64,000 nt of DNA, from sequence record NC_010324.1, one strand, 5' to 3'. This stretch comes from Escherichia phage phiEco32. A program made the translations under genes and the position numbers. The notes under the pieces were generated by a model, which saw nothing but the letters and a program-made list of their open reading frames with translations, ran no database searches and had not been told where the DNA came from. Below, in pieces: positions 26,014 to 35,533 of this stretch; the stretch's first letter is position 1; each line of letters begins with the position of its first letter.

Positions 26014-26022
26014 TAATGTATA
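26014..26022 (+). promoter_or_regulatory. TAATGTATA motif (candidate phage-sigma-dependent promoter element)
   Basis: Exact 9-mer 38 nt upstream of the ATG at 26061. Confidence 0.45.
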
Positions 26023-26060
26023 TAGGGGGTAGGACATTTTTATTTATAAAAGGAGACGTT

Positions 26061-29000
26061 ATGGCTAACATTAAACCGTGGGAAGAAGCTTCCAAAGCTC
26101 CTGCGTATCTGAATGCCTCTCCGGAGCAACAAGCTCAAATGAGAGAACAATATAAGGCAGCAGGTGGCTCTATTCCTGAGGAACAACCAGTAGCACAACC
26201 ACAACAAGAAGAACGTGGTGCTATAGGCGAGTTTGCTCAAGGTGTGTCAAATGCTCTTCAATCTGGTGGTGCAAATATTGCAGCTAGTGCTGCTAAAGGT
26301 ATTGGTGGTTTAGTTGAGATCGGTGAGAATCTAGCTGGAGCACAGACTAGTTATGGTAAGCGTATCCAAGAGAACTCTCAGAACCTTCTGAAAGAACGTA
26401 TGGATAAGATTGAGGATGGGATTGGCAAAACTGTTGGTCAGTATGCTGGCGTTGCTGGTGATATTGGTATGACTGTTGCTAACCCATTGGCTGCTGCTGC
26501 TATCATCGCAGGTCGTGAGACAGGTCGTGCATATGCAGACCAAACCCCTGAAGAGGGAGAAGATAAGTCTATTCTAGATGCAGCCTTAGTTGGTGGTGCT
26601 AACTATGCGGCCCAGAGAATCCTTCCGGGTGCTGTCGGTACAGCTGAGTCCACACTTGGACGTATTGGTCAGAACGTTGCCAGTAACGCAGTGGCTGGTG
26701 CTAAAGGTGGTGCTCTTGTTGGTGCTGCTGAAGTTCAGAACAAGTATGGGGATGACAATGATCTAGCTAAGACATTGGAAGGTGTTATCGAAGAGGGGGC
26801 TATGGGTGCTGCATTTGGTGGCGCAGTTGGTGGGGTTCATGGTTTGATTAGCCGTCCGGATTCTGTTGTTTTCAAGAATACTCCAGAGTATGCGAAGACT
26901 GATATTGCTGCTGATGACGAACTGATTCGTAGTGCTAAGAATGTTGATGAACTGAAAGAGGCTTACTCTAAAGCTGAAACTGCTAACGCTGCTTCTGCTC
27001 TGAACCTTCTCGATGAGAATGGGTTCCGTATTACAGATGCTGTTGCTGTAGATTCTCCTGCTGCTCAGCGTATTCTTAACACTGACCAAGCTCGTGCTGA
27101 GAAAGCTGCTTCTGTTCAGAAAGAACACTCCAACATTCCGGGCCTTAATCCTTTAGCTTCTCCTGCTAAGACTCGTGGTAAAGCTTTCGCTGATAATGAG
27201 CACAACCAGAAACAGGCTGTTGCTATGAAGGATGCGATGGCTGACTATACCAAGGATAACACTAAAGCTCTTACAGATGTTTTAGATAACCTAGATCGTG
27301 AATTAACCTCTCTCCGAGCTTCTGGTGATTTTACTGGTAGTCCGATTGATATTAAGAATCGCACACAAGCTGACCGTGACTTCATTGATGCTTACAAGAC
27401 TTTCTACAATGAAGCAAATCGATTCAAAGCTCGTGAAGGTGAAGACTTCAATAACTTTGTAGAGAAAGCTGCTGAACTACAGAAGATGGCTGATAATGTT
27501 TCTCCAGAGATGAAGAAAGCTATTGGTGGTCTGAAGAAACTGAAGGGTATGCCTGAAGGTTTTAATCCTATTCAAGATGCTTACACTCTGAACAATACAG
27601 CTAAGTTCATGAGCAACCAAGATCGTGGTTGGACTTCCCTGACTGATGATGGGTTCCGTGAGGCCTCTTCTCCTAGTCTGGTAATGAACACTCTCGGTGC
27701 TGCTAAATATGCTCTGAATCGCTTCTCTTCTCAGCGTGCCCGTTCTCAACGTGTTAAGCAACAAGAGTCTAATAGTGAAGCTATCCGCTCTCTGGCTCGT
27801 GGTGATTTGGAAGTTGCTCGTGCTAAATCTACTGCTGATGAAGCTCGTGCTAAAATGGAAGAAGAACCAGTTGTTGATGACATTAAATTTAAGACGCAAA
27901 ATGACGTGGAAACCGAACCGGTTCGGGAGCCTTCTTCTAGTACTGTGACGGAAGAAAATCTTCCTTCTTCTGCTCCTCAAGAATCTCCTCTTACAGCTCG
28001 TGATTTAGTTGCGCAAAGACGTGCTATCCGTCAGGCTGAACAGCGTCGCGCTGAAGAAGAGGCAGCTGCTGCTCAAGAAGCTCCGGTTGAACAGGCTCCT
28101 CAGGCTGAACCTCTCCCTGCTCGTAATCCTCTAGAGGAACGTCGTGCAATGGAACAGCAACGTGCTCAAGAAGAGGCTACACAGGCTCCAGAACCAACCG
28201 TAGAGGAACCAACAGTCAAAGCTGAGCCATTACCTGCTCGTGCTCCTAAAGCTCCTAAGGAAGCTGTACAGGACGTTAAACCGGCAAGTGGTGTAGAACG
28301 TTTAGCTGCTATGTCTAGTGCTGCTCGTCAGGCTACCAAAGATCGTGCAGAACGTTTTGCTCGTTCTCTGTACTCTAAGGCTGCTAAAGCTAAAGCCACT
28401 GCTGAAAACTTCTTGGCTTATAAAGGTGATCCTAAGGAATTGATGCGTCGTATTCGTCAGGAAGATAATGCTATCAACACTGAACGTCATGAAGAAATGG
28501 CTCGTAACCAGCTGGCTTCTCAGCAAGGTATTGCTACTGCTAAGAACAACACTGTACGAACTAATTTTGCTGAATGGGTTAAGGAACGTGGTCTGCCAGA
28601 AGACATTGCTACTAAGGCATTACGTGCTGAAGAGAAAGGTTTAGGTGGGAACGTAACTAACTTGGATAGTCTGAAACGTCGTGCTGAAAGGTTGTATCAG
28701 AAGCAGCGTGAGGATGAGTTTGATAGATTATATCAACAAGCTCTAGAAGAGAACAAAGCTTTCGATAAGAAAGATGCTCCTAAACTGGTTGACCAGAAGA
28801 AAGAGCTTCAGTCTGAGATTGATGCTTTGATTGATTCAGAACCTTTACGTCCTGCTCAGAAAGATGCTATGCGTAAGCTGATGAATGACTTTGTAGATGG
28901 GAAGTTTAAATCTTCAGAGAAGGCTGGTAGGGAAGAGGCTTTGGAAGTTGGTCAGATGAAGGATATTTGGGATGGGTTTATTAACACCTACAACAGAGAA

Positions 29001-30482
29001 GTGAATGCCTTCAACAAAGCTAACAAGAACTCTCAGTACGAAGCTGCTGCTAAGCACTTACAGGCTCGTGAAGAACGTCTTGCTACCCTCAGGAAAAAGG
29101 CTCAGGCTCGTTCAGATGCTAAGGCTGCTGTTGAGAATGAACGTAAAACTCTAGAGGCTATTGCAGCTCAGAAGAGTGAGATTGAGAAGATGATGGAAGG
29201 TTTACCTAAACCTGTCCGTGAGGCTCAGGAATCTCGTACATTGAAACAGTTAGCTGCTCACCATGACAAGAACTCTCCAGTTCCTCCAGAGAAGTTCCGT
29301 AGTTATATCGAACGTATCCATAACGCCGAGTCAGATTACCTTGATCGTCAGCGTCGTTTAACTGATGCAGAGGAAGATGCTCGTCAGGCCAAGTGGAACA
29401 AGATGTATGAGCAAGCGGAAGAGATGAACCGTAAGTTTGATGTGGACAAGAGAGTTAAGCGCAGTGAAGAGCTTAAAGCGGCCCAAGAGCGTGAGAATGA
29501 CCTTATGGCAGTACAACGTCAACGTGATGACATTCATCGCCGCCTGATGCGTACTATGGAAGATAAGGGCATATCTAGAGAGGATGCTGAAGCATTTGCT
29601 GGTTCCTATATGGATAACCGTTATGCACTTCTTGAGAAGCCTATGACTCCTACTGAACATCAGAATGCTCGTTCTCGTATCGAAGCTGATGTTGAGAAGT
29701 TTGCTAAGAAATACGAATCAATGACTCCTATCGAGAAAGAGATTGTTAAGGTTACTGGAGATACTGAAGGTAAGCTTGATAACTTGGATGCGGATACTAG
29801 GAAGGCTATTGAGGAGGCTCAGAAGGTTGACTCTGATATCAAGAAACTGCAAGAGGAAGAGTTGGAGATGGAGAAGATTCGTTCTGCTCTGCCTGATGAT
29901 GAAAAATCTCAAGCAAATTCTGATATCTTGGAAAGCATTAAACAACAGGAAGAAGTCTTTGCTGATAAAGTAGAGAAAGCTTTCTTGAGTGGGAAAAGCT
30001 TGGATGAGTTGGCTAGTGTGGCTGAAGTTTTAGACAGGGTTCATGGTGCAGATAAGGCTGGTAACAACCGTCGCTTTGTACGTGCATTGCAGACTGCTGC
30101 TGAAAACAAGAAGAAGTATGGTGATAATCCAGTAGCTTGGTTTAGTGCTGATGATTACTCTGCCATTGCTAAACTTGGTGCTTCTTCCGCAGGTGGTAAC
30201 AAATCCAGAGCACTGGAGAAGATCTTTGGTTCTACAGCTGAACAGGCTAAGAGTAAGTTGCTTGGTAGGGATGATGTAGCGAAGATGAGACGTGTGATTG
30301 AAGAGAACCCTGATATCAAGATTCCTTCTTACAAGACAACAAATCGTACTGAGTACTTGCAGTTCTTGGAGAAGTTTAATGACGAAGGGAAGCCTAAGAT
30401 TAAACGTGGCTCATTGTCAGAGAAGCTTGAACGCAGTAAGCGTCAATCGAGACTCCGTGTAAGAGTTCGACCTAAGGAGTGA
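26061..30482 (+). CDS. large internal virion / ejection protein (1474 aa), coiled-coil rich
   Basis: Track ORF starts at 26016 inside the promoter motif; ATG at 26061 has SD AAGGAGA; Ala/Glu/Arg/Lys-rich with long helical segments. Confidence 0.6.
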   Translation: MANIKPWEEASKAPAYLNASPEQQAQMREQYKAAGGSIPEEQPVAQPQQEERGAIGEFAQGVSNALQSGGANIAASAAKGIGGLVEIGENLAGAQTSYGKRIQENSQNLLKERMDKIEDGIGKTVGQYAGVAGDIGMTVANPLAAAAIIAGRETGRAYADQTPEEGEDKSILDAALVGGANYAAQRILPGAVGTAESTLGRIGQNVASNAVAGAKGGALVGAAEVQNKYGDDNDLAKTLEGVIEEGAMGAAFGGAVGGVHGLISRPDSVVFKNTPEYAKTDIAADDELIRSAKNVDELKEAYSKAETANAASALNLLDENGFRITDAVAVDSPAAQRILNTDQARAEKAASVQKEHSNIPGLNPLASPAKTRGKAFADNEHNQKQAVAMKDAMADYTKDNTKALTDVLDNLDRELTSLRASGDFTGSPIDIKNRTQADRDFIDAYKTFYNEANRFKAREGEDFNNFVEKAAELQKMADNVSPEMKKAIGGLKKLKGMPEGFNPIQDAYTLNNTAKFMSNQDRGWTSLTDDGFREASSPSLVMNTLGAAKYALNRFSSQRARSQRVKQQESNSEAIRSLARGDLEVARAKSTADEARAKMEEEPVVDDIKFKTQNDVETEPVREPSSSTVTEENLPSSAPQESPLTARDLVAQRRAIRQAEQRRAEEEAAAAQEAPVEQAPQAEPLPARNPLEERRAMEQQRAQEEATQAPEPTVEEPTVKAEPLPARAPKAPKEAVQDVKPASGVERLAAMSSAARQATKDRAERFARSLYSKAAKAKATAENFLAYKGDPKELMRRIRQEDNAINTERHEEMARNQLASQQGIATAKNNTVRTNFAEWVKERGLPEDIATKALRAEEKGLGGNVTNLDSLKRRAERLYQKQREDEFDRLYQQALEENKAFDKKDAPKLVDQKKELQSEIDALIDSEPLRPAQKDAMRKLMNDFVDGKFKSSEKAGREEALEVGQMKDIWDGFINTYNREVNAFNKANKNSQYEAAAKHLQAREERLATLRKKAQARSDAKAAVENERKTLEAIAAQKSEIEKMMEGLPKPVREAQESRTLKQLAAHHDKNSPVPPEKFRSYIERIHNAESDYLDRQRRLTDAEEDARQAKWNKMYEQAEEMNRKFDVDKRVKRSEELKAAQERENDLMAVQRQRDDIHRRLMRTMEDKGISREDAEAFAGSYMDNRYALLEKPMTPTEHQNARSRIEADVEKFAKKYESMTPIEKEIVKVTGDTEGKLDNLDADTRKAIEEAQKVDSDIKKLQEEELEMEKIRSALPDDEKSQANSDILESIKQQEEVFADKVEKAFLSGKSLDELASVAEVLDRVHGADKAGNNRRFVRALQTAAENKKKYGDNPVAWFSADDYSAIAKLGASSAGGNKSRALEKIFGSTAEQAKSKLLGRDDVAKMRRVIEENPDIKIPSYKTTNRTEYLQFLEKFNDEGKPKIKRGSLSEKLERSKRQSRLRVRVRPKE

Positions 30483-31099: not shown

Positions 31100-31466
31100 T
31101 TTCCATCTTAGTTTTTAGTTTATGACAAGGGTCTTTACACAGAACCTGAAAACCTTCTTTCTCACACAGAGCACGAGAGATGATTTCGTCCCAAGTTGCT
31201 TCATGATCAAGAGGAACTATAGGATCTATGTGGTCAATAGCCATATCCTTTACAGGGTGGTCAGAACCACACATGGCACACTTAAAGTGCATTGCCAGTC
31301 TGCCTGTCTTTGGATTAATCTTCTGCTCTGTCTTGGCGTCTGCTAGTGCATCGAACATGGGCTTCCACTTTCTAGTCAGAGAACGAATCCCTGACTTGAT
31401 GAAAGAGTTATAACGAGCTTCAGTCCACTGATTACTGCATCTTGTTTTATTAGCCTTCATTTGCAT
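31062..31466 (-). CDS. HNH endonuclease (zinc-finger type)
   Basis: Motif CAMCGSDHPVKDMAIDHIDPIVPL...LCKDPCHKLK; track ORF extends to 31586 but the likely start is the Met at 31466 or 31460. Confidence 0.6.
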   Translation of the reverse strand: MQMKANKTRCSNQWTEARYNSFIKSGIRSLTRKWKPMFDALADAKTEQKINPKTGRLAMHFKCAMCGSDHPVKDMAIDHIDPIVPLDHEATWDEIISRALCEKEGFQVLCKDPCHKLKTKMENDARKQFKKGNE

Positions 31467-31902
31467 ACTCTCCGTGAAGCTTCTGTCTTTCTTCTCTAAG
31501 AGCTTCTGCGGCAGACTCCAGTGAGTCAAAAACTCCCAGTGAGTACCTCCTTTTATTAGCAGAAATTCTTGCTCTCCATTTACCATTAGGCTCTTGGGTT
31601 ATTCCTTTATATCCGGAAGTGTTATTGTTGTTAATTTTTCTATTGTAGGCATTTTCTAAAGGTGTTACTAGCCTGAGATTATCCCGTCTATTGTTTTGTC
31701 TATCGCAATCTATGTGATCTACAATCTTTCCAGAAATATCCAAACCTTCCATTAGAAAAACCAATCTATGCAACAGGTACTTCTTCCTGTCGATAAAAGC
31801 AAAAAGATACCCATCTCGGTCTACCTTAACTCTAAGTCCAGTAAATTCTCCTGTACTTGGGTCATACTCAAAAGAGCATCTAGTCTTCTCAGACTTCGCC
31901 AT
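31450..31902 (-). CDS. HNH homing endonuclease with AP2 DNA-binding domain
   Basis: GYLFAFIDRKKYLLHRLV...VDHIDCDRQNNRRDNLRLVTPLEN plus C-terminal GYKGITQEPNGKWRARISANKRRYSLGVFDSLESAAEA. Confidence 0.7.
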   Translation of the reverse strand: MAKSEKTRCSFEYDPSTGEFTGLRVKVDRDGYLFAFIDRKKYLLHRLVFLMEGLDISGKIVDHIDCDRQNNRRDNLRLVTPLENAYNRKINNNNTSGYKGITQEPNGKWRARISANKRRYSLGVFDSLESAAEALREERQKLHGEYANEG

Positions 31903-32081: not shown

Positions 32082-32900
32082 TTACCAAGATTTATCTAAC
32101 CATGTCCAGTCGAACAGGTCTTCCGGAGTCTGACCAACAAAGAGAAGCCGAGCATTCTCAAGCATCTTCTCTTCATCTTCAGTATCGAACTTCTTATAAT
32201 ATTCCATTCGTACTATATGATACATGGTCCACTTGTCTGTAACACCAGCCAACAACTTAGCTGCTGCTTTCTTCCCTATTCCTTGACGTCGAAGCTGAAG
32301 CTTACCTCCCCACATAACTTCTTTACGTTCTCCACATCCGGGGATATTATCTGTACCATCTCCAACCAGCATCTGATAGAAGAAATTTTGCCATGAAACT
32401 AAATCAGACACGTAGTGAGGAGGAACCTCTTTCTGTCTTTCTCCACAAGCCCAACGATAATGCCATCCGGGAGTTATCAACAAATCTTTGTCTCTAGTAC
32501 AGATGATAGTATTCTTATCTCTGCGTTGCCTTTCGGCTAGTGCATCATCAGCCTCTCTCCCAAATACGTCTATGTATTCATATTTACCTTTAATGTAATC
32601 ACCAACATTTTGCCAGTGAAAAGGTCTTTCTCCGGGAGGTCTATTTGCTTTGTAGTCTTGCTGTTTAGCAACATCAAAACGGAAGTTACCACCTTCGCTG
32701 AAGTAGAACACAACCTTGCTACAACCTGATCGAGCTATGATTGTATCAATCTTATACTGAAGTCGTTCAATCATGAAATTGTAATCAACTGGAACACGTC
32801 CTGTGTCAAGGAAGGGATGCTCCTGAGTAAGAGCACCCACTTCATACCGAAGAACGTCAGCGTCCACTATAGCAACTTCAGGGAGCTTAACTTCTTCCAT
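32082..32900 (-). CDS. 5'-3' exonuclease / flap endonuclease
   Basis: GREADDALAE...ICTRDKDL and H3TH-like LVGDGTDNIPG; start probably an internal Met near 32900 (track start 32924). Confidence 0.75.
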   Translation of the reverse strand: MEEVKLPEVAIVDADVLRYEVGALTQEHPFLDTGRVPVDYNFMIERLQYKIDTIIARSGCSKVVFYFSEGGNFRFDVAKQQDYKANRPPGERPFHWQNVGDYIKGKYEYIDVFGREADDALAERQRRDKNTIICTRDKDLLITPGWHYRWACGERQKEVPPHYVSDLVSWQNFFYQMLVGDGTDNIPGCGERKEVMWGGKLQLRRQGIGKKAAAKLLAGVTDKWTMYHIVRMEYYKKFDTEDEEKMLENARLLFVGQTPEDLFDWTWLDKSW

Positions 32901-33776
32901 AAATATCATCCTGAGCTTGAGCAATAATCCAATCTAGATCTGATACTGCTGATTCAATAGTTGAGTCATTAAACAGTAGATATGTTTTTCTCTGTTCGCC
33001 TTCAATATATGAGCGAGAGTCTCCATCAAAAGAGCAACCATCTCTAAGAACTTGGACAACTTGGACATGGAAATTCTTTTCTAGTTCTCGTACCTCTGCA
33101 TCAAAACCTCCGTCAGTAAACACGACAATATCATCCTGACCTAGCCCTTCTTGTTTGATACTTTTTACAGCAAGATTCCCCATATGATTGTTTCCAAACA
33201 TAGGTTTTAAGAAGTCTTCACTTGTAGAAATCATCAAATCTCTTACAGACTTCCCTCCCCATTCTGGTCTAGGTTTTTCTTTCCATTCACGATCTTCATA
33301 GCGTGCTAGAAAGTTTTCTAGAGGTATTCCTAGTGCAGCAGCAGCTACTCTGTACATTGGCTCCTTGAAGGATTTGGTTGAATATCCATGGTGGTATGAA
33401 TGGGCATTGACCCAAGCATTGGCTATCGTATCTTTACCACAACCCGGAGGCCCATTAAGAATTACTACTAAAGGCTTATAGTGGGAACCTCCCACCATAT
33501 TGGTCAGTGCTGGATTGCCTTGAGATTCCATTTCTAATTGCTCCGTGTGGTCATGTGAGTAGTCTATTGGAGAAGTTTTGTTACCAGTAACTTTAGGTAA
33601 AATCGCTCTAGTTGTTTCTACGTATTTACCGCCATCAATATTGATTTGAAACTCTACAAGCTCATTCTGTAACTCATATCCTGATAAGTTGGATAGCTCC
33701 TCCAACTCATCTCTGACGAAATTTAAATGTTTGATTTTAATTGCAAGAGCTTTCTTTAAAGCTTTTACCTCTTCAT

Positions 33777-33786
<10 letters not shown>
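32887..33786 (-). CDS. P-loop nucleotide kinase (dNMP-kinase-like) with ~110-aa N-terminal coiled-coil extension
   Basis: Walker A VVILNGPPGCGKDT; substrate not inferable from sequence. Confidence 0.6.
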
Positions 33787-35272
<1,486 letters not shown>

Positions 35273-35273
<1 letters not shown>

Positions 35274-35533
35274 TATTCTATTCCACGTTCTTTCAGAGCT
35301 TCTAGCAATCCATTGTGATTGGCAGCACATTCTGTGTACTGGTCCTGATACCACTCCAACGTAGTGGCTAGTGCTTTTCCTTGAGCACTTTCTAAAAGAG
35401 GCAGGTCAACCCTACATTCAGCTTTTAGGTTTGTTGGTAAGGGCATTGATTGCCTGCTGTTGTCGCTCATTGAACAAGCTGACATACTCATCACTAGCGC
35501 AGACATTATAAAAAACTGGTTTAGTTTTCTCAT
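35273..35533 (-). CDS. o-spanin (Rz1-like outer-membrane lipoprotein)
   Basis: Signal peptide with lipobox MSAC, Pro-rich mature part; start at Met 34 of the track ORF; partly embedded in the i-spanin gene in another frame. Confidence 0.55.

Follow-up and report, generated by a model that had tools for sequence, protein, structure and literature searches.

The deoxynucleoside monophosphate (dNMP) kinase of phage T4, gp1, acts on hydroxymethyl-dCMP (hmdCMP), dGMP and dTMP. All four dNMPs have been reported as substrates of the T5 enzyme, dnk (Mikoulinskaia 2003, as cited in PMC10653934), and DUF3310 has been noted as a domain of the T7 nucleotide kinase gp1.7 (PMC9339283). The gene described here, from Escherichia phage phiEco32 (NC_010324.1), combines parts from two of these groups: a P-loop kinase core of the T5 type stands, in one reading frame, behind the N-terminal module of a DUF3310 protein. 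It was analysed within a stretch of 64,000 nucleotides, called the window below, which represents a Kuravirus (the phiEco32/SU10-like podophages of E. coli) and is about 98% identical to Bas90 and YF01. The enzyme belongs to a known family, and in dozens of genomes the gene already bears the annotation of a dNMP kinase; its DNA is 97–98% identical to that of Bas90, YF01, SU10 and others, where it carries the label ‘dNMP kinase’ or ‘ATP-binding protein’, and PMC9965538 gives YF01 gp28 as a dNMP kinase. The chimeric architecture and the series of alleles to which it belongs appear to be undescribed in the literature searched. The gene and its parts, with the evidence for each, are as follows.

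32887..33780, minus strand: whole gene, chimeric nucleotide kinase of 297 residues (list of open reading frames, sequence, annotated starts in Bas90 and SU10)
33682..33774, minus strand: predicted helix of the N-terminal module, residues 3–33 (AlphaFold2 models of the window and Paul proteins, heptad count)
33580..33678, minus strand: predicted long beta-hairpin of the N-terminal module, residues 35–67 (AlphaFold2 strands 35–48 and 53–67)
33499..33579, minus strand: variable, low-confidence linker, residues 68–94 (predicted local distance difference test score, pLDDT, 44–55)
33478..33498, minus strand: relic of the N-terminal edge of DUF3310, MVGGSHY, residues 95–101 (PF11753 begins here in P0018, residues 99–150)
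32890..33477, minus strand: T5-type dNMP kinase core, residues 102–297 (PHROG 139, alignment to the 4E8, ECBP2 and rybdy8 kinases, AlphaFold2, fold matches)
33427..33453, minus strand: Walker A motif or P-loop, GPPGCGKDT, residues 110–118 (sequence)
32902..33472, minus strand: P-loop kinase cassette (blastn breakpoints, junction sequences)

The first 101 residues of the protein have their counterparts in a different family from the rest. A set of 175-residue proteins (P0018–P0029) is 77–93% identical to residues 1–101 and then continues into the Pfam domain DUF3310 (PF11753), and phrog_26149 matches the window protein at E 6e-24 over residues 3–106. In Paul, 172-1, PE006 and Bas93 the gene for such a protein occupies the slot that follows a sigma factor gene and a SLOG gene and precedes a 5′–3′ exonuclease gene. 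The Paul-type protein is linked to T7 gp1.7 because both match PF11753 (gp1.7 at E 4.5e-23); direct BLASTP between the two found no similarity, and a search of the PDB found no relative of gp1.7. No PF11753 match was found in the window protein or elsewhere in the window, and the relic MVGGSHY is the last stretch that the protein shares with the DUF3310 proteins.

The borders of the exchange can be read from the DNA. In blastn the window is collinear with DUF3310-type sister genomes, at 91–93% identity, as far as 33473; against Paul, 172-1, PE006 and O18-011, homology ends at that position and returns at 32901, one base before the ATG of the exonuclease gene. The cassette between, 32902..33472, is without counterpart in the sister phages and stands in for their 220-nt DUF3310 body. 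The right break against WFI101126 also lies at 32901, while the upstream homology has already ended at 33775 because this phage carries N2, a divergent module with 24% identity to the module of the window (N1) and the same layout. The window protein reads ...NPALTNMVGGSHY|KPLVVILNGPPGCGKDT across the join, breaking at ...GGSHY|KPLVV; at the corresponding point the DUF3310 proteins read ...NPALASMVGGSHY|NPDSKKIQPIEF, and the stand-alone kinases of 4E8, ECBP2 and P0019 begin MS|KPLVVILNGPPGCGKDT. Residues 102–297 correspond to residues 3–198 of the stand-alone kinases (MS|KPLVV...), such that the kinase part is whole except for its Met-Ser. At the join the DNA is CAC TAT AAG CCT TTA; the parental forms are CAC TAC AAC CCT and ATG AGT AAA CCA TTA, and the stretch common to them is an AAnCC microhomology. 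At its other end the kinase lacks a stop codon of its own, the final residues ...YGRS and the TAA being supplied by the first 14 nt of the exonuclease gene (32887–32900; ATGGAAGAAGTTAAG). Judged from these alignments, the gene is an in-frame cassette replacement of the DUF3310 domain by a non-homologous P-loop kinase, and the extension, rather than having arisen on a dNMP kinase as an accessory coiled coil, is the N-terminal module of a different family (DUF3310, T7 gp1.7-like).

The fate of the relic bears on the direction of the exchange. Across 44 aligned DUF3310 proteins, M95, G97, G98, H100 and Y101 (MxGGxHY) do not vary; in the chimeras the same stretch reads MVGDSHY, MVVDSHY, MVGSSHY, MVECSQY, TVECSQY, VVDCSHY, IVGTSHY or TVGGSHY. 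Such decay would be the expected fate of a domain edge whose domain is lost, and the extension would therefore have come from a DUF3310 gene. The remainder of the extension is unevenly conserved. Counted among 15 distinct chimeras of 297 residues, variable sites per site amount to 0.09 in the helix (residues 1–33), 0.14 in the hairpin (34–68), 0.35 in the linker (69–94), 0.57 in the relic (95–101) and 0.13 in the kinase (102–297), and the changes in helix and hairpin are conservative. Over codons 1–101 the ratio of nonsynonymous to synonymous substitution rates (dN/dS) is 0.14–0.34 in pairs that involve a DUF3310-type gene, with one pair at 0.45. Among 31 chimera records, representing 16 protein variants, the extension contains no stop or frameshift. 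Conservation in helix and hairpin matches that of the kinase, and dN/dS is low; the folded part of the module is therefore maintained in the chimera.

The catalytic part agrees with the original prediction of a P-loop nucleotide kinase, with a Walker A motif in the C-terminal two thirds of the protein, and is most simply a dNMP kinase, one of the possibilities which that prediction named. That motif, VVILNGPPGCGKDT, covers residues 105–118 of the 297-residue protein, with GPPGCGKDT at 110–118. PHROG 139, ‘deoxynucleoside monophosphate kinase’, is matched at E 3.1e-56 over residues 27–293, and T5 dnk (from NC_005859) matches the same PHROG at E 1.4e-51. In 100 homologues, L108, N109, P112, G115, K116, D117 and T118 are at least 90% conserved, as are K167, R180, D223, G225, D254 and R256, which include the motifs D223-G-G-F and G-D254-S-R256. 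With the same number of homologues AlphaFold2 predicts residues 101–297 at pLDDT above 90, in the alpha/beta fold of nucleoside monophosphate (NMP) kinases. Among solved structures, the best template modelling (TM) score in Foldseek was that of T4 gp1 (1DEK; 0.49 by query, 0.59 by target); further matches were archaeal adenylate kinases, thymidylate kinases and phosphomevalonate kinase, and dozens of predicted viral dNMP kinases match the model of the core at target TM scores of 0.6–0.8. Searches of PDB sequences, by single sequence and by profile, gave matches at the level of the P-loop only and no solved structure for this kinase family; designed ‘Pizza’ proteins and AAA ATPases among the matches were set aside as noise. 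The core is accordingly assigned to the T5-type dNMP kinases, its activity and substrate range being those suggested by homology to T5 dnk, and it is the sole nucleotide kinase found within the window. One BFVD match, A0A7S6HV70 of Escherichia phage JEP1 (518 residues), joins a dNMP-kinase-like fold to a DOD-type homing endonuclease domain and is possibly an intein-containing or endonuclease-invaded kinase gene.

The reading frame first proposed for the gene, 32887–33786, is real and uninterrupted and comprises 299 residues counted from a GTG. Position 33786 belongs to this upstream in-frame GTG, and the likelier start, on sequence features, is the ATG at 33780..33778, which gives 297 residues up to the stop TAA at 32889..32887. 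It is the first ATG in the frame, shares an ATGA overlap with the stop codon of the preceding gene, has a GGAG 7 nt upstream and is the annotated start in all relatives. An internal start for a short kinase was considered and rejected: M95 is not conserved (some chimeras have T, V or I there), and the GGAGG at 33484–33488 has no start codon after it.

About 101 residues stand before the kinase core, a long form that is rare among relatives: homologues are mostly of 180–220 residues, and 31 of the 1433 phage records with a homologous kinase core cover at least 80% of the full length. The original prediction recognised an unusual extension and took it for a coiled coil of some 110 residues. An extension of unusual kind is present, of about 101 residues; helix and heptads are confined to residues 3–33 and are followed by the hairpin and a linker. 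AlphaFold2 predicts the same helix (3–33) and hairpin (35–67) in the window protein, at pLDDT of about 70, and in the Paul protein, at 76–79. The helix is amphipathic, with a heptad a/d pattern of V5, L8, L12, K15, L19, V22, L26 and L29; seven of nine a/d positions hold hydrophobic residues, a count attained in 112 of 5000 shuffles, and the divergent N2 module keeps the pattern with eight of nine. With about four heptads, it is a candidate coiled-coil oligomerisation helix. Residues 68–100 are predicted at low confidence and probably form a disordered linker of about 35 residues leading to the kinase.

The gene lies in a slot whose contents vary between closely related phages. It is bordered on the left by a sigma factor gene and on the right by an exonuclease gene, and in the window a SLOG gene separates it from the former.

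34166..34813, minus strand: phage sigma factor, phiEco32 gp36-like, left-hand anchor of the variable slot (annotations of relatives, weak Sigma70_r2 match)
33777..34169, minus strand: upstream neighbour, SLOG (YAcAr/YspA-like) protein of 130 residues (PF10686, phrog_289)
32082..32900, minus strand: downstream neighbour, 5′–3′ exonuclease (FEN-like), right-hand anchor of the variable slot (Pfam 5_3_exonuc_N, annotations)

Between sigma factor and exonuclease the following arrangements were found.

P-loop kinase alone: 4E8, ECBP2, P0019 contigs
SLOG, then P-loop kinase: rybdy3/8, SGF2, TH38; also XT18/32, with a divergent kinase
SLOG followed by a fusion of N1 and P-loop kinase: the window and 31 records
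SLOG followed by a fusion of N1 and DUF3310: Paul, 172-1, PE006, Bas93
N1-like module fused to DUF3310 in a more distant phage, upstream genes unannotated: PKM.Lu.22.1, 54% identical over N1 residues 23–104
SLOG followed by a fusion of N2 and DUF3310: WFI101126, EcoN5 and numerous variants from metagenomes
Short DUF3310 protein that begins MSNPAL..., SLOG absent: O18-011
Short P-loop form that begins MSNPAL...SHYKP..., SLOG absent: P0152, P0002

Among the phage records listed, 63 have the P-loop kinase, 34 the DUF3310 module (at least 80% identity) and 67 SLOG, and none has both DUF3310 and the P-loop kinase. The two kinases thus behave as alternative alleles. DUF3310 is also found at this locus in the more distant Gordonclarkvirinae GAP52, 7-11 and BUCT695, and the P-loop kinase in divergent Kuravirus-like contigs, at 52% identity and with the same neighbours. 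Both alleles are old.

It is probable, in our view, that the gene encodes a working dNMP kinase in which a T5-type core came to stand behind the N-terminal module of a DUF3310 protein by in-frame replacement. The replacement would have removed the DUF3310 body and put a P-loop kinase, minus its Met-Ser, behind ...GGSHY. A deletion between the AAnCC repeats, in an ancestor with the two genes in tandem, could account for this, and so could illegitimate recombination of phages with alternative alleles. In the product a flexible linker of about 35 residues would join a folded N-terminal module to the kinase, and the enzyme would most likely convert dNMPs to dNDPs (deoxynucleoside diphosphates), feeding phage DNA synthesis. 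The module may oligomerise the kinase or dock it to a partner, whichever catalytic domain follows; this role is a guess.

Several observations weigh against parts of this account. As to the history, the kinase of the window is about 74% identical in nucleotide sequence to the 4E8-type kinase and the flanking genes are 76–79% identical, a divergence that would be as compatible with old vertical descent or a tandem ancestor as with recombination. No genome with both kinases in tandem was found among the listed records, nor around P0019 and P0152. The leader of the rybdy8 kinase, MN-GE-SKP, was considered as a leftover of the C-terminal GE of DUF3310, which would have proved a tandem ancestor, and was rejected, since the codons are not the same and so short a match carries no weight. 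As to the catalysis, direct BLASTP of the window protein with T5 dnk gives 36% identity over 66 residues only, and because this similarity is limited the substrate range is an extrapolation from T5 dnk. As to the module, AlphaFold2 worked from a shallow alignment and reached a confidence of only about 70, and a Foldseek search of the PDB with the Paul-type model, which joins the module to a DUF3310 part of low confidence, returned nothing below E 0.1, leaving the module fold without a known counterpart. No relative of the module was found outside this phage group, either by scanning IMG/VR with peptide patterns from the extension or by HMMER with the extension as query and 1.84 billion representative proteins as target, a search that returned the Kuravirus DUF3310 cluster only, plus spurious matches in long repetitive proteins. 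Finally, the same kinase occurs without the module in natural genomes (rybdy3/8, SGF2, TH38 and the P0152 type). Dispensability of the extension, a point raised by the original prediction, is therefore borne out in one sense: because natural phages carry a kinase core 94.9% identical to that of the window without it, the extension is dispensable for phage viability, though it is conserved where present.

The same module-free phages raise the question whether the extension is a functionless passenger, the fusion having merely given an incoming kinase a start codon and a ribosome site. Module-free variants are viable and recurrent (rybdy8 and SGF2, starting MNGESKP...; P0152 and P0002, starting MSNPAL...SHYKP...; and the 4E8 types), constraint is plainly relaxed in the linker and in the DUF3310 relic, and the predicted flexibility of the linker would imply no fixed contact with the kinase. 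These points must be set against the selection described above: in the 15 chimeras the catalytic core and the helix and hairpin are conserved to the same degree, dN/dS is well below 1, and the extension is free of stops and frameshifts in every record. A passenger is an unlikely explanation, if not strikingly so. Should the module instead be functional, its partner might be the SLOG protein upstream, with the kinase docked onto it in a nucleotide-sensing complex. SLOG domains (PF10686) are predicted to bind nucleotide ligands, the SLOG gene is translationally coupled to the kinase gene by the ATGA overlap and lies directly upstream at all ten loci read that bear N1 or N2, and the short module-free forms of the O18-011 and P0152 type lack SLOG as well. 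Adjacency alone would explain this co-occurrence, however, since single deletions take both; the SLOG protein is about 93–98% identical whether it stands beside N1, N2 or no module, which is unlike a specific interface, and the rybdy8 type retains SLOG without the module. We regard docking onto SLOG as quite improbable.

A further explanation concerns the domain that was lost, and would make the exchange an immune-evasion allele in which DUF3310 was dropped as a trigger of host defence while kinase function was kept. T7 gp1.7 has been reported as an activator of EfAvs5 (PMC11897194), and the mutual exclusion of DUF3310 and P-loop alleles at one slot, in genomes otherwise 92–96% identical, is the pattern of a hotspot of alternating alleles. 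The Kuravirus DUF3310 proteins, however, share with gp1.7 only the Pfam domain and no direct BLAST similarity, and that they would trigger defence is an argument by analogy; retention of the module would also be left unexplained. On balance immune evasion is a touch less probable again than docking onto SLOG, which is to say distinctly doubtful. The possibility, advanced in the original prediction, of a polynucleotide kinase or of a kinase acting on modified nucleotides or DNA ends was not borne out and is very improbable indeed. It could draw on generic P-loop matches to AAA_33 and AAA_18, and on some homologous Klebsiella phage kinases whose genes adjoin polynucleotide kinase/phosphatase genes. 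The Pfam matches all lie below curated cut-offs and cover the P-loop alone (AAA_33, 14.4 bits against a cut-off of 27), Pfam found no phosphatase, DNA-binding or other extra domain in the window protein, the core shares its dNMP kinase PHROG with T5 dnk, and its fold matches are NMP kinases. Nothing in the analysis of the protein points to a modified-nucleotide or DNA substrate. Beyond the preferred reading of a working dNMP kinase, the N1 and N2 modules could be portable docking or oligomerisation devices for whichever nucleotide kinase the phages of this group carry, with the swap from DUF3310 to the P-loop kinase being adaptive; we hold this to be rather unlikely. Were it true, the swap would possibly remove a target of Avs5-type sensors while the kinase stays where it acts, perhaps at the SLOG protein, the replisome or a complex for dNTP synthesis.

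Several features of the surrounding DNA may be recorded. The SLOG gene is ATGA-coupled to both of its neighbours. It is variously annotated as ‘GTP-binding domain’, ‘chromosome segregation protein’ or ‘DprA’, and its homologues occur in 429 phage records, one of them fused to the ICP1 HelB helicase. In three Egyptian isolates, EcP-vB (L011, 1119–1506), EcK-vB and EcM-vB1, the SLOG gene matches in two pieces and is annotated as a truncated ‘DUF2493 protein’, the split reflecting a frameshift or a sequencing error; the kinases of these isolates have the most decayed relic motif, TVECSQY. Downstream of the exonuclease, a 453-bp segment (31429–31881) is missing from all nine Kuravirus loci compared. 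It carries a homing endonuclease of 150 residues with HNH_3 and AP2 domains (reading frame 31450..31902, minus strand), sits between the small reading frame that follows the exonuclease and a conserved HNH gene, and is apparently a recent mobile insertion. On the other side of the slot, a Macro-domain (Appr-1-p processing) gene (34833..35354, minus strand) is present or absent among close relatives, and window positions 34814–35268 have no counterpart in 172-1, WFI101126, O18-011 and PE006 and are present in Paul, Bas90 and rybdy8. On the plus strand, 26016..30482 runs convergently with the early-gene block and encodes a protein of 1488 residues rich in Ala, Glu and Lys; its relatives are annotated as virion-associated protein, the label ‘erythrocyte binding protein 1’ in 172-1 being clearly a mis-annotation.

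The enzyme itself is ordinary, and it is the architecture that is worth recording: phages that are nearly identical elsewhere have exchanged two unrelated nucleotide kinase domains in frame, at one recombination hotspot and with the same conserved N-terminal module in front, which makes this a clean natural case of non-orthologous domain replacement. The phages provide a natural set of alleles, with and without the module, with either kinase, and with and without SLOG. This set could be used for testing the role of the module and for asking whether a DUF3310 kinase puts a phage at a disadvantage in hosts that have Avs5-like defences. The chimera also accounts for an annotation problem. The PHROG family phrog_26149 is labelled ‘deoxynucleoside monophosphate kinase’ and consists of proteins in which N1 or N2 is joined to a gp1.7-like DUF3310 domain (L003, L004, L006, L013), for which RefSeq labels vary between ‘nucleotide kinase’ and ‘dNMP kinase’; the dNMP kinase label probably reached this family through the chimera, which bridges both families.

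Compared with the enzymes described from other phages, the window protein is closest in its core to T5 dnk (T5.043), which belongs to the same PHROG 139, has a G-x-x-G-x-GKDT P-loop at the start of the core and presumably catalyses the same reaction as the Kuravirus enzyme, dNMP + ATP → dNDP + ADP; unlike the window protein, it has no N-terminal module. T4 gp1 (PDB 1DEK/1DEL) aligns in the GKDT P-loop region, to which the likeness in sequence is confined (profile E 8e-4), and belongs to a different subfamily. Within Kuravirus, the stand-alone kinases occupy the same slot, upstream of the exonuclease, and start MSKPLVV or MNGESKPLVV, without the 101-residue module: those of 4E8 (WJJ57315) and ECBP2 are 65–69% identical to residues 102–297 in an end-to-end alignment, the 4E8 type also lacking the SLOG gene, and those of rybdy8 (XNL96062) and SGF2 are 94.9% identical over the core. 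The Kuravirus DUF3310 proteins (Paul YP_010674348, 172-1 YP_009208197; phrog_26149) have the same slot, the same upstream SLOG gene and, by prediction, the same helix-plus-hairpin fold; the window protein differs from them in keeping only a 7-residue edge of DUF3310 and in carrying an unrelated P-loop kinase in place of the rest.

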